From Candidatus Peregrinibacteria bacterium (lineage in GTDB: Bacteria > Patescibacteriota > Gracilibacteria > UBA1369), in NCBI GenBank assembly GCA_014729615.1, contig WJJQ01000039.1:1-34597 (forward strand): a stretch of DNA of 34,597 nt. Reading direction: 5' to 3'. The position numbers were made by a program, and so were the translations under genes. How positions within the stretch are numbered: position 1 is the first letter of the stretch; each line of letters opens with the position of its first letter. Positions 2,514-16,517 of this stretch are shown here, piece after piece. The notes beneath the pieces are model-generated. The model ran no database searches. It was not told where the DNA came from and saw only the letters and a list, made by a program, of their open reading frames with translations.

Positions 2514-4697
2514 GTGAAAAAAATTTTTCGCGACATCGAACAAAAAGATGAACAAATAATATCCCTAAAAAAAGACGAAAATAAATCTAAGCCGAAAGGG
2601 GGTCTGGTTTTGGATTGCTCAAAAAAACCTGGCAGAGGCAAAATTGGAAATGAAAAGAGTGCGTCAAAAATTAAGGATATCAGTAATTCAAAAGAAGACG
2701 ACGACGTTCTTTTTTTGCAAATAGGATCCGAAAAACAAAACAAAAATAAGGGCATATACGAGTCTATTAAAATCGCTGCGATTGGAATAGTAATTTTATT
2801 TTTGATAAATATTGTGAATGTTTATAACAACGGCTTAAACCTGGGTAATTCGATAGTAGCTTCCGCAGTGAACGGATATGAAACTTTGTTAAACGCGGGA
2901 GGTCAGGCGGAAGGTTATGATTTTAATGCGGCAGAGGTTACATTCACGAAGGCGAAAAAAAGCTTTGATGAAGCATTGAATAGTTTGTCTTTGCTTTCAA
3001 ATGGCCAGAATAGTTTATATGCGCATGGCATAACTTTTTCAACTGTTGAGTCTATTCTCAACGCGGCAAAAGAAATTTCGAACGCGGGCGAAAATTTCAG
3101 TAGGGGGATAGCCAATTTACAAGTTCTGCCCTCGCTTTTTATAGCTGAAAATATGCCGCAAAAAATTGGACTGAATAATGTGGAACGACCATCTTTAACT
3201 GAAAGAATTAAAGATGATTTTGAATATATTGAGCTGGCGATAAACAATTTGTCGAATGCGGAACTGGAATTGAATAAGGTAAATGATTTTATTTTACCGG
3301 GGCAATTGCGGGAAAAAATGGTATTAGCCAGAGAAAAAATCGAGGAATTAAATGATCTGCTTTTTGAAACCAGGCAAAAATTTCCGGCAGTTCTGGACTT
3401 ATTGGGTGATAGATACCCCCACAGGTATTTGGTGTTATTACAAAATGACACGGAAGCAAGACCAACCGGCGGTTTTATAGGTAGTTATATTATTCTTGAT
3501 ATCAACGACGGATACATTACAAAAATGGATTTCCATGACATTTATGAGTTGGACAATCAATTGAAAGAAAACATAGAACCTCCTCTGGATATATCATTAA
3601 TAACAGACAAATGGAGAATGAGGGACTCGAATTATTCGCCTGACTTCGCGATTTCGGCGGAAAAAAGCGCATGGTTTTTACAAAAGCAGGGTGGTCCGAG
3701 CGTGGATAGTATAATTGCCGTTAATTTAAGTTTTATTACAGATTTGTTGGCTCTTGGTGGACCGATGAAAATTGAAGGGTTGGAAGCGGATTTGACTGCC
3801 GAAAATTTTCAATTGGTTATTTCATACATAGTTGAGTCAAAATTGGAGGGAGATGAAAATCCAAAGCAAGTTCTATCCGATATTATCCCTAATTTTTTCA
3901 ATAGTATTCTTGCTGAAGTGGATTTGGGAGATTTTATGCAGACTACTTTGCAGGGTATTAATCAGAAAAAAGTTATGTTTTATTCCAGAAAAGAGGGTGT
4001 ACAGCAACTTTTCGAGGATCTTGATTTGACGCCTCATGTAAGAAGCTTGAATGAAAAAGAGGATTACTTGAATGTAATTGTTACATCTATTGGAGGGAAT
4101 AAAAGCGATAAGTTCATTAATCAAAATGTTTCTCATAGTACCTTTGTTCAAAAAAACGGGGCCATAATTGATGAAGTTACAATCGAAAGAAAACATAATT
4201 GGACCGAAAAGGATCTTGAAAAATGGCGTGAAATTTTATCTGAATTTGGTTTTAACCTGAACGACGGCACGATTATCGACATTTTGGGGCGGGGAAGAAA
4301 TAAAGCCTTTGTAAAAATATTTGTACCTGCGGGTTCAGAAATAATCGAGGTAAAAGGAATTGAAGAAGACATGGTAATCAGCACGCATGACGAAGAATTG
4401 AATAAGCATTATTTCATGTTTGTAACAGAGGTTGAAAACGGAAAATATGATACGGTGTCAATTAAATATAAATTACCTTTTAAACTTTCAATTAATCCAG
4501 CGGATTCATATAAGCTTTTTGTACAGAAACAGCCCTCGGTTAATGCCACATTTTTTAATAAAACCATGCTTTTCGAGCCGGGACTTGAAGGTTTAAAAAC
4601 CTATCCGGAAATGTTTAGTCCCCATAGCGACCTTAGTCTCAAGTACAGTGCCCCTCTAAAAAGAGATATTTACCTTTCTACTCTTGTGTCCAATTAA
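2514..4697 (+). CDS. DUF4012-domain membrane-anchored protein
   Basis: 727-aa ORF with a GTG start. It has an N-terminal TM helix (IKIAAIGIVILFLINIVNVY) and the block YLVLLQNDTEARPTGGFIGSYIILDINDGYI typical of DUF4012 proteins. Confidence 0.75.
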   Translation: MKKIFRDIEQKDEQIISLKKDENKSKPKGGLVLDCSKKPGRGKIGNEKSASKIKDISNSKEDDDVLFLQIGSEKQNKNKGIYESIKIAAIGIVILFLINIVNVYNNGLNLGNSIVASAVNGYETLLNAGGQAEGYDFNAAEVTFTKAKKSFDEALNSLSLLSNGQNSLYAHGITFSTVESILNAAKEISNAGENFSRGIANLQVLPSLFIAENMPQKIGLNNVERPSLTERIKDDFEYIELAINNLSNAELELNKVNDFILPGQLREKMVLAREKIEELNDLLFETRQKFPAVLDLLGDRYPHRYLVLLQNDTEARPTGGFIGSYIILDINDGYITKMDFHDIYELDNQLKENIEPPLDISLITDKWRMRDSNYSPDFAISAEKSAWFLQKQGGPSVDSIIAVNLSFITDLLALGGPMKIEGLEADLTAENFQLVISYIVESKLEGDENPKQVLSDIIPNFFNSILAEVDLGDFMQTTLQGINQKKVMFYSRKEGVQQLFEDLDLTPHVRSLNEKEDYLNVIVTSIGGNKSDKFINQNVSHSTFVQKNGAIIDEVTIERKHNWTEKDLEKWREILSEFGFNLNDGTIIDILGRGRNKAFVKIFVPAGSEIIEVKGIEEDMVISTHDEELNKHYFMFVTEVENGKYDTVSIKYKLPFKLSINPADSYKLFVQKQPSVNATFFNKTMLFEPGLEGLKTYPEMFSPHSDLSLKYSAPLKRDIYLSTLVSN

Positions 4698-8983: not shown

Positions 8984-9307
8984 CTACATATTGATTAAAG
9001 GATAAACATCAATCGCGGGTTCTTCATAAGGATGTGCCTTTGTTACATCTACAATGACTTGTTTATATATTTCTGCGGGGCAGACGGTTTCAATTCTTTC
9101 CTCTATAACTTCTTCTATTTTATTTTGATTGCCGATAAATGGGTTACTGCCTTCCAGAGGTGTAAAACGTCCGGTACCCCGCATAGAAAATGAGCATTCT
9201 GAATAGTTTCCCATTTTTCCCGCGCCCGCTTTAGCCAAAGCATTACGAATAGATTCTGCGAATTCAACAGGTACATAAACAACAATTTTTACATATTTAA
9301 ACTCCAT
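8984..9307 (-). CDS. Small PII/CutA-like alpha-beta protein (stand-alone NIF3-insert / COG3323-like)
   Basis: 107-aa ORF: KIVVYVPVEFAESIRNALAKAGAGKMGNYSECSFSMRGTGRFTPLEGSNPFIGNQNKIEEVIEERIE. Its stop directly abuts the mutS ATG. The family call is from remembered sequence pattern. Confidence 0.5.
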   Translation of the reverse strand: MEFKYVKIVVYVPVEFAESIRNALAKAGAGKMGNYSECSFSMRGTGRFTPLEGSNPFIGNQNKIEEVIEERIETVCPAEIYKQVIVDVTKAHPYEEPAIDVYPLINM

Positions 9308-9331
9308 AATAATATTTAATCAAGCGCATGC

Positions 9332-9360
9332 ATGATAATAATTGATTAATCAAAATTCAA
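9332..9360 (-). promoter_or_regulatory. Candidate internal promoter (TTGAAT-17-TATCAT) ahead of the 8984 gene, mutS and mutL
   Basis: Minus strand: TTGAAT (9360..9355), 17-nt spacer containing the 12-bp palindrome TTGATTAATCAA (9342..9353), TATCAT (9337..9332). Confidence 0.35.
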
Positions 9361-9369
9361 TTATCCTTT

Positions 9370-10650
9370 TTAAGCTTTGCTTGACAGCGTTTCTAATGCT
9401 GTTTCAATCTTTGTCCGTGTATTTTTTAAAAGCCGCAAAGTGGGAAAATTTTTCAGTACATCAACGAGCCCATCCTTTGAAAAACGGGCTAAAGCATTCG
9501 GTATTCTGTTGATATTTGCATATATTTTTTCCAATTCCAGCAATATTTCATATTCTACAATCTCCTCATTCGTCGCGGGTTTAACTTTAAGCTTTTCACC
9601 GACTTCTATGGAACGACCCGCTCGTTTTGAAAGTATTTCTCCCAAATGGCCTTGTACAGCAGCCAAATAAAGTGTCTTTTTTGCTCCATTACATATTAGT
9701 TTTTTACTGCCATTTGCGGCAACAATGGCACCTTTCTCACCGGTGAAAGCGTCAGTTTTTTTGGCTATGGCCAGCAACTTGTCATTTTTATCGCTTATTG
9801 CAAGGCGGGATCCTTGCGAAAATAATTCCTGGTCAAGCTCTAGTCTTATATTTTGATAATTGGGTTCTATATCTGTAATAGTTCCTTCAGGGATTTTCAA
9901 TGCCGGGATTTCATTTGGGTCAAATTCATCTCCGAAGCTTTTTATAGTTATAAAAGGATTATACGTTTTTGCATTAATTATTGCGGACGCAGCCGGCGCG
10001 AATCGTCTTAAACCATCAAAAACATCGGCCTTTTCATTTTCTACAAAACCAAGTTCCTTCAATTTTTCGATGTCAATTTCCACAGCGTGTTCAATATGTC
10101 CGCGATTATGAAATTCGCCGACTCTTACATAACTTCGTGCCGGGCCAATAATAACGGTTCCGTCACTATATTGAACATAGCATCTTTTATCTGCCACATT
10201 TTGGCCTTTTTCGTCATTTTGGCCCACGTGGGGGTCAACAGTTATAACAAATACTGAACCGGCGGGGAAATTTACATGATCGCCCAAACACGCGGCAAGA
10301 TGATGAGCGGCCGATATTTCATTATAAGGTTTGACACTGTTAATTTCCGATAATGAAATTTTATCCTGTGGGCCTTCAGAAGAATCAATATAGCCGGGAG
10401 AATGTCTTAAGACGGCATTTCTTTGTTGAATATTGGCAAGATCATCCAGGTCGCTTATTAACACAACCGGTACACGGACTCTACCGTTATCATCCGAATC
10501 TGTTCTGTTTTTCGCCAAGTGTTGTTTTAATACATCAAAGCCGTATTTAGGATTTTCAATTGGTGCGTTTAAACTCAAGTTCCATGCGTTTTGATCGAAT
10601 TTTTCCAGTGCTTCAGATGGTGATTGAATGTGATTAAGTGAATTTGACAT
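9370..10650 (-). CDS. Divergent SAM hydroxide adenosyltransferase (DUF62 / SAM_HAT)-like protein with N- and C-terminal extensions
   Basis: 426-aa ORF. Its blocks are colinear with the family signatures: VVLISDLDD (vs TDFG), VFVITVDPHVGQ (vs IDPGVG), VIIGPARSY (vs VxPDNG), DVFDGLRRFAPAAS (vs FHGRDIFAP), GTITDIEPNYQNIRLEL (vs IDxFGNxxxN) and LYLAAVQGHLGEILSKRAGRSIEVGEKLKV (vs LEIAVNxGSAAxxL). Several canonical catalytic residues are substituted. Confidence 0.45.
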   Translation of the reverse strand: MSNSLNHIQSPSEALEKFDQNAWNLSLNAPIENPKYGFDVLKQHLAKNRTDSDDNGRVRVPVVLISDLDDLANIQQRNAVLRHSPGYIDSSEGPQDKISLSEINSVKPYNEISAAHHLAACLGDHVNFPAGSVFVITVDPHVGQNDEKGQNVADKRCYVQYSDGTVIIGPARSYVRVGEFHNRGHIEHAVEIDIEKLKELGFVENEKADVFDGLRRFAPAASAIINAKTYNPFITIKSFGDEFDPNEIPALKIPEGTITDIEPNYQNIRLELDQELFSQGSRLAISDKNDKLLAIAKKTDAFTGEKGAIVAANGSKKLICNGAKKTLYLAAVQGHLGEILSKRAGRSIEVGEKLKVKPATNEEIVEYEILLELEKIYANINRIPNALARFSKDGLVDVLKNFPTLRLLKNTRTKIETALETLSSKA

Positions 10651-10674
10651 AGTATTTTTGTTAAAAAAGTATAT

Positions 10675-10699
10675 AAAAAAACTCCGCTTTTATGCGAAG
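10675..10699 (-). terminator. Candidate attenuator terminator: 6-bp stem plus U7
   Basis: Minus-strand RNA: CUUCGC (10699..10694), loop AUAAAA, GCGGAG (10687..10682), then UUUUUUU (10681..10675). It lies 24 nt before the ATG at 10650. Confidence 0.5.
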
Positions 10700-10746
10700 G
10701 TGGTAAAATTTATCTATATTTGCATTAACCTAACCTTCGCATAAAA
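10688..10746 (-). promoter_or_regulatory. Perfect 14-bp hairpin (candidate antiterminator) competing with the terminator
   Basis: UUUUAUGCGAAGGU (10746..10733) pairs with ACCUUCGCAUAAAA (10701..10688), with a 31-nt loop. The 3' arm contains the 5' arm of the terminator stem. The 5' arm lies inside the leader ORF. Confidence 0.5.
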
Positions 10747-10814
10747 AACATCATGGGCATCATCATGTCCATCATGTTTTTTGCGGCGATTTGTAAGGCC
10801 AATGTTATTTTCAT
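10725..10814 (-). CDS. Candidate Met-rich leader peptide MKITLALQIAAKNMMDMMMPMMFFMRRLG (or a 16-aa version from ATG 10775)
   Basis: Hand translation of the minus strand. ATG 10814 and ATG 10775 are in frame and the stop TAA is at 10727..10725. There are 8 ATG codons within 12 consecutive codons. The ORF is too short for the ORF track. Confidence 0.45.
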   Translation of the reverse strand: MKITLALQIAAKNMMDMMMPMMFFMRRLG

Positions 10815-10824
10815 ATGCACCCGC

Positions 10825-10852
10825 ATTATATTTTTTAGGTAGACATTGTCAA
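10825..10852 (-). promoter_or_regulatory. Consensus sigma70-type promoter (TTGACA-16-TATAAT) driving the leader and the 9370..10650 gene
   Basis: Minus strand: TTGACA (10852..10847), 16-nt spacer, TATAAT (10830..10825). The first ATG of the leader ORF begins 11 nt after the -10 hexamer. Confidence 0.65.
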
Positions 10853-10900
10853 GATTTTCGATAATTGAAAAAAACCGGGAATTAATATAGTATTGGCATC

Positions 10901-12784
10901 ATGATTAAGCGAATATTTAGCATAAACACAATCTATTTCTTAATACTGTTTACTCCGTTGATAGTTAATCCTTTCGGGATGAAGCCATTTTCCATTTCCA
11001 AGTTTGCTTTTTTTATAGTTTTGACTTCAATTGTCGCGCTTATTTTTTTTCTTAAGGAAAAAAATATAAAGTATAACAAATGGATAATGATTATTCTTGG
11101 ATCATGGATGTTGTCACTGATTTTATCCACAATTTTTTCCGTAAGTCCCATTGAAAGCTTTTTTGGTTTATATGAAAGGCAACAGGGTTTGCTTGCGTAT
11201 TTGTTTTACAGTCTTTTCTTTATTGTTTCGCTTCAAATATTGGCTAATAAAAAAGTTCAAAAAACCGCTTTCAAAATAATAATTTCAATTGGCGTTATTT
11301 TATCGATTCACGCGATTTTACAGCAATTTGACCTTGATCCAATAGGATTGGGAAATTTGGATCAGTCAAGTGGCCGTAGTATCGCACTTTTGGGTCAAGC
11401 CAATGTACTTGGGAAATGGTTAATTTTACCGCTAATTGCAAATATTTATTATTTCTTTTCATCTTCATCGAAATTAAAAATATTATTCGCCATCACTTCT
11501 TTGTTAACGTTAGCCGGACTTTATACAACTTTAAACAGAGCGACCTTTATGGCTCTTGCACTGGTTTTTGTGTTGGCTATTATTTATAAATATGCGAAAA
11601 AAATTAACTGGAAAATTATCATCCCGATAGTATTGGTGGCCATTCTGGCGGGATCGGCAATTTTGTTTACCGGAAACCTTAGATCTATTAGCACCAGGTC
11701 TATTTTGTGGGAAAAATCCGTTCAATTGGTTCAGGAAAACCCTTTGCTAGGAAGCGGGCCGGAAACCTTTTATCATACTTATCAAACGGTACTTGATCCG
11801 GACATATACAATTATGAGACCATGTTTAATATACCCGACAGGGTACACAGTCAGCCTTTGCAAATTTTATTGGATCAGGGGGTTTTTGGTTTTGCATTTT
11901 ATGCAATTTTAATCGGATTTTTAATTTATGTTTTTATAACGAAAAAGGCTAATACCGATGAATCAAAGATTGCTTTATTTTCTCTTATAGCAATTCATGT
12001 TAGTTTGCTCTTTAGCTTTTCTTTAACTTCTCAATGGATTTTAACATTTTTGCTTGTTGCGGTATTAACTCTTAATACATGCGAATTCAAAAGATTTCAG
12101 CTGGATAAATTAAATAGGTTTTTCACCATTTTTCTTTCAGCCATTACGCTATTATTTGCAATTTTCTATGCTTCATCATTAATACAGTCTAATATTCTGT
12201 TGAGTAAAGGTATAGATTATTTCTTTCAGGATTATCAAAAGGCAATAGTTACGTTTGATGAGGCGGTTGAAAGTGCTCCATATTTCCGCCTGCCTTATTA
12301 CACATCTATTCATTTTTTATCTTTGCCTGAAAAATTGCGTGAATTTCCAAGTTCGGCCGTAATTTTGGACAGGCAATTAAACGCTTTGGGGCAAATTATT
12401 AATTACAGTTACCATTACGACCTTTCGTCCGCAAAGGTTGAACTAGCAAAGAACAACTACGAGCAGGCAAAAATTCACTTTGAAAACGCCGTAAAAAAGG
12501 CTCCAAATTTTCCTGTGGTTTATTCAGATTATGGAAATGCTGCTTTTAATTATAAGGATTATGATATGGCTATAAAAAGTTATGAAAAAATGTTGGAACT
12601 TGCACCGGACTATTGGGTAAATGAAAACGAATATGAGGGGCCCGCAATAAGAGATTACAGCGAAAAAAACCGAATATTCAGAAAAACCCATTATTTGTTT
12701 TATGACGCGATGACTAATCTGGTAAACAGTTATCTTGAAACGGGACAAATGGAAAAAGCGCGGGTTTTAAAAAATATGTTTTAA
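10901..12784 (+). CDS. O-antigen ligase/polymerase (Wzy_C)-like polytopic membrane protein with C-terminal TPR repeats
   Basis: 627 aa with about 11 TM helices. LNRATFMALALVFVL and GSGPETF blocks are typical of the O-antigen ligase family. The C-terminal part (YEQAKIHFENAVKKAPNFPVVYSDYGNAAFNYKDYDMAIKSYEKMLELAPDY) is TPR-like. Confidence 0.8.
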   Translation: MIKRIFSINTIYFLILFTPLIVNPFGMKPFSISKFAFFIVLTSIVALIFFLKEKNIKYNKWIMIILGSWMLSLILSTIFSVSPIESFFGLYERQQGLLAYLFYSLFFIVSLQILANKKVQKTAFKIIISIGVILSIHAILQQFDLDPIGLGNLDQSSGRSIALLGQANVLGKWLILPLIANIYYFFSSSSKLKILFAITSLLTLAGLYTTLNRATFMALALVFVLAIIYKYAKKINWKIIIPIVLVAILAGSAILFTGNLRSISTRSILWEKSVQLVQENPLLGSGPETFYHTYQTVLDPDIYNYETMFNIPDRVHSQPLQILLDQGVFGFAFYAILIGFLIYVFITKKANTDESKIALFSLIAIHVSLLFSFSLTSQWILTFLLVAVLTLNTCEFKRFQLDKLNRFFTIFLSAITLLFAIFYASSLIQSNILLSKGIDYFFQDYQKAIVTFDEAVESAPYFRLPYYTSIHFLSLPEKLREFPSSAVILDRQLNALGQIINYSYHYDLSSAKVELAKNNYEQAKIHFENAVKKAPNFPVVYSDYGNAAFNYKDYDMAIKSYEKMLELAPDYWVNENEYEGPAIRDYSEKNRIFRKTHYLFYDAMTNLVNSYLETGQMEKARVLKNMF

Positions 12785-12813
12785 AAAAGGGGGCCGCATA
12801 AGCGGCCCCCTTT
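12785..12813. terminator. Bidirectional intrinsic terminator between convergent genes
   Basis: AAAAAA-GGGGGCCGC-ATAA-GCGGCCCCC-TTT. It is a 9-bp GC stem (12789..12797 / 12802..12810) flanked by an A-run and a T-run. Confidence 0.85.
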
Positions 12814-12833
12814 CAAATACCCTTAATCCCTTT

Positions 12834-14933
12834 TTATTGTTGAGACAGATAATTGTAAACCATTTGTGACGCTTCACCTCTTGAAGCTGAGTCTCCGGGT
12901 CTACAATTTGCGGAATTAATAATTCCGTTTTCTTTGGCCACTTGAAAATATGGTGCAAACCATGCTCTTTCAAATTCATTCACATAAGGACAAGTTGATT
13001 CCTGAACATCAATTTCATCACCTTCATTATAAAGTCCGCTTGCAAGTACAGTCATTTTAACAAGTGCAGCTCTTGTAACATTATTGTTTGGTCTGAAATC
13101 ACCTGTTGCGTATCCTTCAACCGCGTTTACAGCAGCTAAAGACTCAATGAAGTCATATGACCATCTTGAAACGGGAACATCTGGGAATGTAGGTCCATTA
13201 GTTGTATCAATGGCAATATTAAATCCATTAACAAGAATTTTAGAGGCCTGTTCCCGAGTAACTGTGTCGTTTGGGCCAAAATAACCTGTAAGGTTTCCGT
13301 TGGAATATCTGTAACCTTCAATTACACCCAAAGCACTCAAATATTCAACAGCATCAAAGAATCCATTAGTAACCGGAACATCAATGAATGTAGCCTTAAC
13401 AGCCGGTTCACCGATTTGAGGCGTATTCATAATATCAGCATGTAATTCTCTACACATTTCAACAATCCAATAATCAGATTTGCTTACCTCCGGTGTAAAT
13501 GTGCCTTCATCATAATGATCTTTATAAACCTGACAAGCGTTTGCCGATGGTTCGAATGACCAAATTGAATTGTGGAATTGATAACAAGCGGCAGCATTAT
13601 CAAGATTTCCGTTTGCTGTTACTGTGCCTTCTGATTCCTGAACCGCCATTCTTTGACAAAGCGCTTCATCTACAGTTGGAAGGTTCATTAAGTCTGCATG
13701 GTATTCGCGGCATAATTCTACTCTCCAATGGTCGTTTTGACTTACCGCAGGAGTAAAAGTTCCTTCATTATAATGAGATTGATATGTCTTACATTCCTGG
13801 AATGTTGGAACAGTATTCCAAATTTCACGATAATCTTTTTCACATTGAGCCGCTTCCTCTTGGTTTCCATTACTTGTAATGACACCCTGCGCTCTTTGTA
13901 TTGCCATTCTTTCGCATAAATATTCATTTACAATCATTTCCGGAGTACCTGTCATCTCTTTATTCCACACTTCTGGGAAGGTGAATTCGCAAATGCCTGC
14001 AGCATATTGATATCCATTTGCCGTTAAAGTGCTCTGATCGTAGTATGTTCTTGTCTGTTCACAAACAGATTCAGATGGCCAAAAACTATTTGGATAGATT
14101 GTATTACATTGTTTAGTTTTGGTTAAGTCGCCATTTAGAGTAGCAGTCAAAACATCCTGTTTAAGCCAACTTTGCATTGTTTGACATTCGTTCCAGGAAA
14201 TTTCCGTACCCCATTCGATTGGATAATTATATGAACAAGCACCGGCGTAAATGTCATAACCGTTAGCGGTTAATGTGCCTTGATCTCTATATTGTGCTGC
14301 TTGGATACATATATTTCTATCAACGGTGATAATCTTACCCAAAGTTGCATAAATCTCTGGGAATTCCTCTTCACAGTAGCGTATAACTTTTTCAACAGTA
14401 TAAGGAGAACTTTGCACACCTTGATTAACAAGTGAAATAGCAAAATTACAACCGTTCTCACTTAAGACAAAATTTGAACCCGGAGAATAAACCGCGTTGG
14501 GTCCTGTTTTATATTTAAAATATGTATATCCTGTCCATGCACTTATCGTTCCATCAGCATCAATAGCCCTGGCTCTTACTCTGAACTCATTATCACCCGA
14601 CAACGGTGGAGAATTAAAGAATTCCGATTCGGAAATAAATGAAATCGGATTGGCCCACTTTTGCTCAAGCGTACTGCACCAGTCGCAAGTAATTTCAAAT
14701 TCATATGAAGTCGCGCCATCAACGGGAGTGACTTCAATAGGAGCAGTTCTAGGATAATTGGTAAGTACCGCGTTATTACCCGGGTAATACAAATAGGGCG
14801 TAGATAAATTAGGATTTATATTACCTTGAAATACATCTGCATTTGGAGTTAGAAATGTTGCTGCAGCCACAACACCGACGGCAAGAACCGCCAAAAGGCC
14901 GTATAAAAGCCTGTTTTGCTTTTTGTTTTGCAT
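12834..14933 (-). CDS. Secreted/anchored surface protein: signal/TM segment, FN3-like domain, four Cys-rich repeats and three C-terminal SLH domains
   Basis: 699 aa. N-terminal hydrophobic LLYGLLAVLAVGVVAAATF; TSYEFEI...EFRVRARAIDADGTISAWT (FN3-like). The C-terminus has three F-x-D-V...W...I..L...G...GY....F.P...VTR..A blocks (aa ~515-699), the S-layer-homology pattern. Confidence 0.8.
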   Translation of the reverse strand: MQNKKQNRLLYGLLAVLAVGVVAAATFLTPNADVFQGNINPNLSTPYLYYPGNNAVLTNYPRTAPIEVTPVDGATSYEFEITCDWCSTLEQKWANPISFISESEFFNSPPLSGDNEFRVRARAIDADGTISAWTGYTYFKYKTGPNAVYSPGSNFVLSENGCNFAISLVNQGVQSSPYTVEKVIRYCEEEFPEIYATLGKIITVDRNICIQAAQYRDQGTLTANGYDIYAGACSYNYPIEWGTEISWNECQTMQSWLKQDVLTATLNGDLTKTKQCNTIYPNSFWPSESVCEQTRTYYDQSTLTANGYQYAAGICEFTFPEVWNKEMTGTPEMIVNEYLCERMAIQRAQGVITSNGNQEEAAQCEKDYREIWNTVPTFQECKTYQSHYNEGTFTPAVSQNDHWRVELCREYHADLMNLPTVDEALCQRMAVQESEGTVTANGNLDNAAACYQFHNSIWSFEPSANACQVYKDHYDEGTFTPEVSKSDYWIVEMCRELHADIMNTPQIGEPAVKATFIDVPVTNGFFDAVEYLSALGVIEGYRYSNGNLTGYFGPNDTVTREQASKILVNGFNIAIDTTNGPTFPDVPVSRWSYDFIESLAAVNAVEGYATGDFRPNNNVTRAALVKMTVLASGLYNEGDEIDVQESTCPYVNEFERAWFAPYFQVAKENGIINSANCRPGDSASRGEASQMVYNYLSQQ
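13425..14312 (-). repeat. In-frame Cys-rich protein repeats inside the SLH protein
   Basis: aa 339-417 (LCERMAIQRAQGVITSNGNQEEAAQCEKDYREIWNTVPTFQECKTYQSHYNEGTFTPAVSQNDHWRVELCREYHADLMN) and aa 425-503 (LCQRMAVQESEGTVTANGNLDNAAACYQFHNSIWSFEPSANACQVYKDHYDEGTFTPEVSKSDYWIVEMCRELHADIMN) are clear tandem copies. Two shorter degenerate copies of the C-x7-QGTLTANGY-x5-C-x6-W core start at aa 208 and aa 290. Confidence 0.65.
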
Positions 14934-15896: not shown

Positions 15897-16517
15897 TTAT
15901 CTATACTGTCGAATTAATCCGGTAACCACACCCTGCACGCAAAGTGAACCATCAGGATAAATATTGTCATAATTTGGATTTTCCGGTTTCAAATAAACAT
16001 TTCCGGTAGCATCCTTCATATATGTTTTTACCGTATTTTGATTATCGACAAGACCTACAACAACGTCTCCGACTCGCGGCTCAAGTGATCCGCAAACAAC
16101 CAAAACATCACCTTCATATATACCCACATCAATCATACTGTCCCCGGTAACCCGCAACAAATATGAATTTTTAAAATTATGCACTATATCGTCACCAACT
16201 TTCATCCAGCTTTCAATGTATTCCTCGGTGAGAATGGGACCGCCGGCAGGTACCATCCCAAGCAGAGGCAGCTTTTTTTCGCTACTCTCAAGCCTTTCCT
16301 TAACACTGGAAAGAAGCTTGATACCGCGAGGAGTATCATCTTTCATAATATACCCCTTTTCTTCAAGCGCTTTTATGTGTTTCAAAATACTATTATCCGA
16401 ACTTACCCCGAAAAATTCACGCATTTCACGTATTGTAGGAGAAGAGCCATGTTCTATTTGATAATCCTCTATAAATCTGAGGACGGCTTCCTGTTTTTCG
16501 GTAAGTATTTCAGACAT
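15897..16517 (-). CDS. lexA: LexA repressor (S24 self-cleaving)
   Basis: wHTH N-terminus (LTEKQEAVLRFIEDYQIEHGSSPTIREMREFFGVSSDNSILKHIKALEEKGYI); cleavage-site region LLGMVPAGGP; catalytic Ser in RVTGDSMIDVGI and Lys in NTVKTY. Confidence 0.92.
   Translation of the reverse strand: MSEILTEKQEAVLRFIEDYQIEHGSSPTIREMREFFGVSSDNSILKHIKALEEKGYIMKDDTPRGIKLLSSVKERLESSEKKLPLLGMVPAGGPILTEEYIESWMKVGDDIVHNFKNSYLLRVTGDSMIDVGIYEGDVLVVCGSLEPRVGDVVVGLVDNQNTVKTYMKDATGNVYLKPENPNYDNIYPDGSLCVQGVVTGLIRQYR

Follow-up and report, generated by a model that had tools for sequence, protein, structure and literature searches.

A candidate methionine-codon leader-peptide attenuator before a SAM hydrolase-fold gene in Candidatus Peregrinibacteria

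On the minus strand of a 34,597-nt contig (this whole stretch is herein referred to as the window) from a Candidatus Peregrinibacteria metagenome-assembled genome, a gene for a divergent protein of the S-adenosylmethionine (SAM) hydrolase fold stands behind a short open reading frame (ORF) crowded with AUG codons and behind RNA hairpins that exclude one another. What does such a leader do, and what does it sense? An earlier note on this DNA had read it as a ribosomal attenuator governed by methionine (Met) codons, and the comparative analysis presented here supports that reading: 13 of 14 other loci encoding members of the same protein subfamily carry a Met-cluster ORF, an anti-terminator and a terminator, directly upstream of the gene and on the same strand; the RNA arms of these leaders show three-way complementarity; and hiding the stretch of mRNA that a ribosome would cover shifts the predicted fold, in most leaders, from one hairpin to the other. 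We consider it likely, judging from sequence, that the element is a ribosome-mediated leader-peptide transcription attenuator with AUG as its regulatory codon, placed before a homologue of SAM-cleaving enzymes.

Met codons and competing helices in the window

The leader follows a consensus promoter, TTGACA (10852..10847) and TATAAT (10830..10825) with a 16-nt spacer, which is the sole 12/12 promoter match within window positions 9000..13000 (all coordinates in this section are on the minus strand unless noted). Promoter geometry places the probable transcription start near 10818, so that the 5' untranslated region would measure ~4 nt and the mRNA would be near-leaderless. The leader ORF (10814..10725), whose ATG begins at the 11th nucleotide after the -10 hexamer, comprises 29 codons and a UAA stop (10727..10725) and encodes MKITLALQIAAKNMMDMMMPMMFFMRRLG. 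Eight AUG fall within 12 consecutive codons; seven of them occupy nine codons (MMDMMMPMM, 10775..10749), which we propose to be the sensing codons, and the eighth lies outside this cluster at 10742..10740. Another ATG in the same frame, at 10826, shares positions with the -10 hexamer and is thus upstream of any transcript from this promoter. Nowhere else on either strand of the 34.6-kb window are there at least four Met in seven codons (0.115 such clusters are expected per shuffled window).

The RNA of the leader has the full 1:2, 2:3 and 3:4 layout of four regions, and the loop of helix 1:2 contains the Met cluster. Region 2 (10746..10723), inside which the stop codon lies, is the 5' arm of the anti-terminator and, through 10740..10723, also the 3' arm of helix 1:2. 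Region 3 (10709..10688) is the 3' arm of the anti-terminator and includes the 5' arm of the terminator, CUUCGC (10699..10694). The cores of these two regions, 10746..10733 and 10701..10688, form a perfect 14-bp helix, and the window anti-terminator reaches a ΔG of -19.4 kcal/mol, as against -6.6 +/- 2.4 in shuffles (z = -5.3). Region 4 (GCGGAG, 10687..10682) pairs with CUUCGC across the loop AUAAAA to give the terminator, which shares the 3' arm of the anti-terminator and is mutually exclusive with it; the U7 tract of this intrinsic terminator (10681..10675) is separated by 24 nt from the gene ATG at 10650. Such proximity leaves no space for a separate gene promoter, and expression of the gene therefore depends on read-through. 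The promoter, the ORF with its AUG run, the 14-bp hairpin enclosing the stop codon and the short alternative stem followed by U7 had all been pointed out in the earlier note, and each was found again at the same position. The 250-nt gap before the regulated gene serves as a divergent promoter region, its other flank being a plus-strand Wzy_C/TPR gene, and so no converging gene calls for a terminator in it.

Two further features were absent from the earlier note. The first, present in minimum-free-energy folds, is region 1 (10804..10786); by pairing with 10740..10723 it supplies the 5' arm of helix 1:2, the anti-anti-terminator, around the Met cluster, and the 1:2 duplex differs from shuffles at p = 0.0085 in the window. 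The second is a hairpin built from the Met codons, A6-CAUGAUGG...CCAUGAUG-U6 (10782..10743), which folding revealed in the window and in none of the other lineages' leaders; it may, speculatively, be a pause element. The whole window leader folds at -43.2 kcal/mol, compared with -25.8 +/- 3.3 for shuffles (z = -5.3). On the plus strand, the A6...U6 palindrome scores terminator-like (10753..10772), though no plus-strand gene ends there.

Conservation of the leader across the subfamily

The 14 further loci encoding subfamily members were retrieved by several routes. Scans yielded one locus from genome contigs and three from metagenome contigs; a second word-indexed search, made with the alignment, gave the same 12 proteins; and an exhaustive HMMER search added five representatives, two of which were traced to contigs along with two other new subfamily proteins. 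The 13 loci that carry the leader add eight distinct leader sequences to that of the window, and in the nine together are found both the AUG run and the two stems whose conservation in orthologous regions the earlier note had proposed as its check. Three of the loci (L013, L016, L017) were fetched only after the layout had been predicted, and all three showed it. A sigma-70-like promoter precedes the ORF in 9/9 leaders, and its -10 hexamer is followed 7-23 nt later by the leader AUG; the ORF spans 16-66 codons across lineages and holds at most three to seven Met in any 8-codon stretch, depending on the leader; and a G+C-rich hairpin followed by U5-U8 is present in all leaders, with a terminator ΔG of -6.8 to -17.8 kcal/mol and a distance from U-run to gene AUG of 20-36 nt (100 nt in L009).

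The encoded peptides differ widely. Apart from that of the window, they read MQISFAKSVQTQMMMSMMM(M)LSxRRFEFAA in the L001 clade, MNTYKSQSMMMQMMMFRPAERLIGIQ in L004, MNKTFSHNMMMNMMMPMRRMHVCVR in L017, MKNFLPTTGAANVTSSMMMAMMMLSRRRLVLA in L013, MKSQVINSSARVQNSSMNMMAMMMRFWRG in L016, MSLRQFTTTMSMSMPWRGIHLM in L007 and MSSMMMPLMRSYLSVS in L008, and in L009 the peptide has 66 residues and ends ...AIMFMMMRPPGR. They share the Met cluster (MMMxMMM and variants, e.g. MQISFAKSVQTQMMMSMMMM..., MNTYKSQSMMMQMMM..., MSSMMMPLM... and the L009 ending) and no other clear similarity. At the level of primary sequence, the Met cluster and the CG-rich core of the stems are all that is common to the leaders; peptides and stems vary across lineages, and conservation is confined to the Met cluster, to the reading frame and to pairings that exclude one another. 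Gene neighbours vary as well: some loci have MutS/MutL downstream, and in others the upstream neighbour is a gene for ComEC, an acetyltransferase, an S51 peptidase or a TilS-like protein. As the leader stays with the gene while the neighbours change, the leader belongs to this gene.

Is the ORF translated, or are the AUG triplets simply an RNA motif? In 9/9 leaders a promoter-proximal AUG is in frame with the Met cluster and open as far as it, an arrangement that 0.3-10% of the shuffles of a given leader reproduce (Fisher p 7e-6), and in L009 this open stretch extends over 56 codons. Within the L001 clade, the clusters differ in length by whole ATG codons. The arm formed by region 2 has the stop codon no more than a few nucleotides from its 3' end in 8/9 leaders and at its 5' end in L009, the latter as in Escherichia coli trpL. 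The alternative would be that the AUG repeats are an untranslated motif, bound by a protein as in TRAP systems or by the tRNA-Met anticodon as in T-boxes, and that the ORF is incidental. Triplet repeats beside an anti-terminator do resemble the TRAP site of the Bacillus trp leader, and AUG is complementary to the CAU anticodon. The frame test, the codon-sized indels and the fixed position of the stop codon relative to region 2 nevertheless argue against this alternative, as does the lack of a match to T-box or any other Rfam family (Rfam 15 gave no match in the window, chance-level matches only in 10500..11000 and none in the leaders of eight orthologous loci), and we regard it as improbable.

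The pairing potential of the leaders is conserved in a manner that their sequences are not. Region 2 begins 0-10 nt after the main Met cluster and is complementary to the terminator 5' arm (region 3) in every leader. Region 3 itself reads, by lineage, CUUCGC, GCCUUCGC, CUCCGC, CCCGCC, CUCCGCU, UCCCCGG, CCCCCCGC, UCCCCGC and CUCCGCC, and its partners in regions 2 and 4 follow these changes; the outer segments of the anti-terminator show no sequence relationship between lineages but retain complementarity. Before region 4 has been made, the anti-terminator state has a ΔG of -16 to -28 kcal/mol, compared with -7 to -18 for the terminators. Shuffling with region 3 held fixed gave z values of -1.8 to -6.0 for anti-terminator stability (Fisher p 6e-15); an earlier duplex shuffle test, whose regions were poorly drawn in the window and in L009, gave way to this one. 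Over the nine leaders helix 1:2 is also significant (Fisher p 6e-6), being clear in the window, L001, L004 and L013, marginal in L007 and L017 and absent from L008, L009 and L016.

Because whole-leader MAFFT alignments put the divergent stems out of register, paired changes were counted on a covariance-model alignment. The model, of 80 positions, was seeded from the L001 clade and iterated once; it found L013 and the window, and after the iteration also L008, L017, L004 and L016, each hit falling where the leader was expected. It reached neither L007 nor L009 at any stage, and these two rest on per-sequence folding. In the model-fitted alignment, 89.8% of cells are standard pairs, against 76.2 +/- 2.0 in shuffles (0/500), and 7 of the 16 pairs changed on both sides where 3.3 were expected (0/500); slid registers of the same alignment gave 36-54% standard pairs, and RNAalifold returned the same helix core. 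Pairs of the terminator helix are uncountable on this alignment, since loop lengths differ and region 4 falls out of register, and the terminator is supported by folding of each leader. The model found no confident extra copy in ~135 kb, and no second Met-cluster leader, and hence no evidence for a regulon, appeared in the ~150 kb of sequence scanned.

The effect of a ribosome was approximated by removing the mRNA from -15 to +12 nt of the first A-site nucleotide and refolding the remainder. With a ribosome placed at the stop codon, all 11 leaders fold into the terminator, and with one placed at early Met codons, 9/11 fold into the anti-terminator.

The regulated enzyme and the proposed switch

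The regulated gene (10650..9370, minus strand) encodes a 426-aa divergent protein (MBD3328009.1) of the SAM hydrolase/chlorinase/fluorinase fold (PF01887). Pfam SAM_HAT_N matches it at 30.0 bits (cut-off 26.3, E 5e-7), a PF01887 match is precomputed for 12 subfamily proteins, and the subfamily profile matches PH0463 and TM 2zbu; NCBIfam gave no match for the enzyme. An AlphaFold2 (AF2) model (pLDDT 73) has both domains of the two-domain fold, and all nine significant Foldseek matches in the PDB are SAM hydrolases, chlorinases or fluorinases (E 2e-14 to 3e-10; TM 0.70-0.78 normalised to the target). On the model and the profile matches we regard the fold as certain and the exact chemistry as less so. 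At 13-17% identity, the protein shares the two-domain fold with the DUF62/SAM hydroxide adenosyltransferases PH0463, MJ1651 and TM 2zbu, the chlorinase SalL and the fluorinase FlA, as well as the VDPxVG Asp and a downstream Arg; unlike the solved DUF62 structures, it carries, with its whole subfamily, an N-terminal extension of ~55 aa (modelled at low confidence) and a helical C-terminal extension of ~65 aa. PH0463 reportedly activates water through an Asp-Arg-His triad. In the profile alignment D139 and R156 fall on PH0463 Asp68 and Arg75, and the triad His127 aligns with D212, invariant in the subfamily (FHGRD becoming FDGLR). The likeness to SAM hydroxide adenosyltransferase that the earlier note had suggested therefore holds for the fold, by Pfam, profile and Foldseek, and does not extend to this His. 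The subfamily has few members and stands well apart: among 1.84 billion representatives searched exhaustively with HMMER, nine clusters (50% identity) score below E = 1e-87, and no further match appears until ~1e-12.

The protein is also unusual in composition, with no internal Met in 425 residues (window background 1.95%, P = 2.3e-4). Internal Met number 0-3 in 16 of 20 subfamily members, and the next two genes downstream of the window enzyme show no Met depletion (107-aa ORF 2.8%, MutS 1.9%). Since the protein would have to be made during Met shortage, avoidance of Met is expected. Ordinary DUF62-type relatives (P0023-P0086) are Met-poor too, with 1.07% internal Met and none in 9/64, and Met avoidance may be a trait of the PF01887 family as a whole, beyond the attenuator-controlled subfamily.

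We propose that the element senses the supply of charged elongator Met-tRNA, and we infer the dynamics of the switch and its response to Met as follows. Transcription would start ~7 nt after the -10 hexamer, and a ribosome would load on the near-leaderless AUG at 10814. Were none to load, region 2 would be held in helix 1:2, regions 3 and 4 would pair and the polymerase would terminate at U7. With Met-tRNA plentiful, a ribosome arriving at the UAA would cover region 2, the terminator would form and the gene would be off. With Met-tRNA scarce, the ribosome would stall on the early AUGs of the cluster, opening helix 1:2 and stopping 10-30 nt short of region 2, which would then pair with nascent region 3 (14 bp, ~-19 kcal/mol); the 6-bp terminator would be blocked, and read-through would turn the gene on.

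To our knowledge, every characterized PF01887 enzyme attacks C5' of SAM and frees L-methionine, so that an enzyme induced when Met-tRNA is short would win Met back from SAM, perhaps from its inactive (R,S) epimer. We give Met recovery from SAM, as the physiological output, slightly better than an even chance, a lower confidence than for the attenuator itself because the enzyme activity is a prediction and the triad His is changed to Asp. Such a role would fit a bacterium of the Candidate Phyla Radiation (CPR), a group whose members are generally not expected to make Met.

The same RNA switch with the opposite sign would result from ligand-dependent nascent-peptide arrest of the TnaC or SpeFL kind, in which the poly-Met chain stalls at high free Met or SAM, the anti-terminator forms under excess and the SAM-degrading enzyme is induced for homeostasis. 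The regulated enzyme would indeed be catabolic for SAM, substrates often induce catabolic genes and the RNA architecture fits any cause of a stall at the Met cluster. Arrest peptides, however, require a conserved amino-acid sequence, and here the Met run alone is shared among peptides of 16-66 residues; single-codon runs are the classical sign of starvation sensing, and a Met-free product fits a shortage of Met rather than an excess. We judge arrest to be about as improbable as the untranslated motif considered above. Marginally less probable again is a general sensor of translation rate, or a constitutive partial terminator, that has no amino-acid specificity (the ermC class). The geometry of the switch would respond to any well-placed stall, but such a device leaves unexplained the run of Met codons in every lineage, the Met-releasing family of the target and its Met-avoiding product. 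The least probable explanation is that the ORF makes a functional Met-rich micropeptide, such as the Cu(I)-binding one that the earlier note had raised, with the hairpins as its terminator and incidental structure: MxMM and MMxMM do resemble Cu(I)-binding Met motifs, but the peptides lack clear similarity beyond the Met run and vary four-fold in length, the element is always attached to the same gene in the same orientation while neighbours change, and neither the conserved competing helices nor a downstream gene without room for its own promoter would be explained.

Several observations weigh against the attenuator that we favor. The most divergent subfamily member, L015 (AMFJ01011165; gene ~2821-3917), is the only subfamily locus without a Met leader; its gene abuts an Asp/Glu-racemase-like gene with no gap between them. 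Helix 1:2 is not significant in L008, L009 and L016, in which small local hairpins overlap region 2 instead. The terminator of the window (6 bp, one G-U pair, -6.8 kcal/mol) is the weakest among the family leaders, which bears out the caution about its short stem in the earlier note. Equilibrium folding retains the terminator in L001 and L013 despite a stalled ribosome; the terminators of these two leaders are very strong, and we assume that the kinetic order of co-transcriptional folding must decide there. The covariation count comes from an alignment fitted to the structure and is biased towards it, a bias from which the per-sequence shuffle tests are free. Three leader-bearing subfamily members are not Met-poor, with 5-6 internal Met, and the His-to-Asp replacement in the subfamily likewise counts on this side. 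Met shortage also limits the charging of initiator tRNA and could lower ribosome loading on the leader, and transcription-translation coupling is not known from CPR bacteria. Judged at the level of sequence, the attenuator we favor has every feature of known leader-peptide attenuators except a universal 1:2 helix.

Relation to known systems and gene neighborhood

Attenuation has been textbook knowledge for ~50 years for Trp, His, Leu, Thr, Ile/Val, Phe and partly Cys, and a Met-codon case would fill a vacant slot. Control by Met has so far been attributed to SAM riboswitches, T-boxes and MetJ/MetR. The element described here would indicate that the Met requirement of initiation does not bar the evolution of a Met-codon attenuator. 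The earlier note knew of none, and our search of the full-text literature, in which subscription journals are incompletely covered, found neither a Met-codon leader attenuator nor a leader-peptide attenuator in CPR bacteria; two comparative surveys (PMC2965389, PMC1262725) include no Met-codon leader among those they describe, and none from CPR bacteria. With moderate confidence, we propose the element as the first Met-specific leader-peptide attenuator and the first ribosome-mediated attenuator in CPR, serving emergency Met recovery by a Met-free DUF62-type protein in an expected auxotroph.

The closest likeness is to trpL, hisL, leuL, thrL, ilvL and pheL (Trp_leader, His_leader and others in Rfam), in which a short ORF close to the promoter contains a series of codons for a single amino acid. 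With the classical enterobacterial attenuators the element shares regions 1-4 and the 1:2, 2:3 and 3:4 helices, an intrinsic terminator just before the regulated gene and a stop codon placed so that the terminating ribosome blocks the anti-terminator. Unlike them, it uses AUG, precedes a SAM-cleaving enzyme homologue instead of a biosynthetic operon and belongs to a CPR host; its mRNA is leaderless or short-leadered with no visible Shine-Dalgarno sequence, its Met codons lie in the loop of helix 1:2 and not inside region 1, and it has no Rfam match. SAM riboswitches (SAM-I to SAM-VI) and Met T-boxes resemble it in exerting cis RNA control over Met or SAM genes, often by letting either a terminator or an anti-terminator form, but these bind SAM or uncharged tRNA through an aptamer or Stem I; neither is present here, where the proposed sensor is the translating ribosome.

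Outside the Proteobacteria, actinobacterial leader ORFs are likewise short, sometimes leaderless and rich in codons for one amino acid; mycobacteria, for example, have leaderless polycysteine small ORFs. The Met leaders differ from these in the amino acid and in having a complete, conserved hairpin switch, whereas the Cys runs of the actinobacterial cys and cbs leaders come without a recognizable terminator and have been proposed to act in a Rho-dependent manner (Seliverstov 2005, PMC1262725). The LVVI upstream ORF of Mycobacterium tuberculosis ilvB1 does use an anti-terminator and terminator pair (PMC13236596).

Gene regulation in CPR bacteria is almost unexplored, and the element points to translation-coupled control of transcription on leaderless mRNAs. 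It also bears on the disputed physiological role of DUF62: the SAM hydrolase has been assigned to the repair of (R,S)-SAM (bioRxiv 10.1101/2025.08.29.672840) and elsewhere described as still without an assigned function (PMC12120602), and a Met-starvation switch together with a Met-free protein would be new regulatory evidence that points to Met recovery. The covariance model and the Met-run signature provide a means to search CPR genomes for a Met regulon.

In the window the regulated gene is followed on its 3' side by a 107-aa ORF, mutS and mutL. Weak promoter-like sites lie at 9360..9309, and no terminator is predicted 3' of the enzyme gene. The 107-aa ORF (window 8984..9307, minus strand; L002 4319-4642; L013 1566-1892) is conserved between the SAM_HAT-like gene and mutS; Pfam and NCBIfam returned no match for it, and it corresponds to a stand-alone insert domain (PII-like) of the NIF3 family (PDB 2gx8 residues 162-262, E 9e-33). 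Within a few kb of the mutS-mutL/SAM_HAT-like cluster there is also a LexA gene (window 15897..16517, minus strand; L001 61-684; L002 860-1483; L010 132-755), and in the window and the L001 clade the regulated gene is thus flanked by DNA-repair genes in conserved synteny. In locus L015, which lacks the Met leader, long frames stay open only when TGA is taken as sense (a 1116-codon frame, for example, has two in-frame TGA), and the genome, probably that of a Gracilibacteria- or Absconditabacteria-like relative, probably reads UGA as a sense codon.

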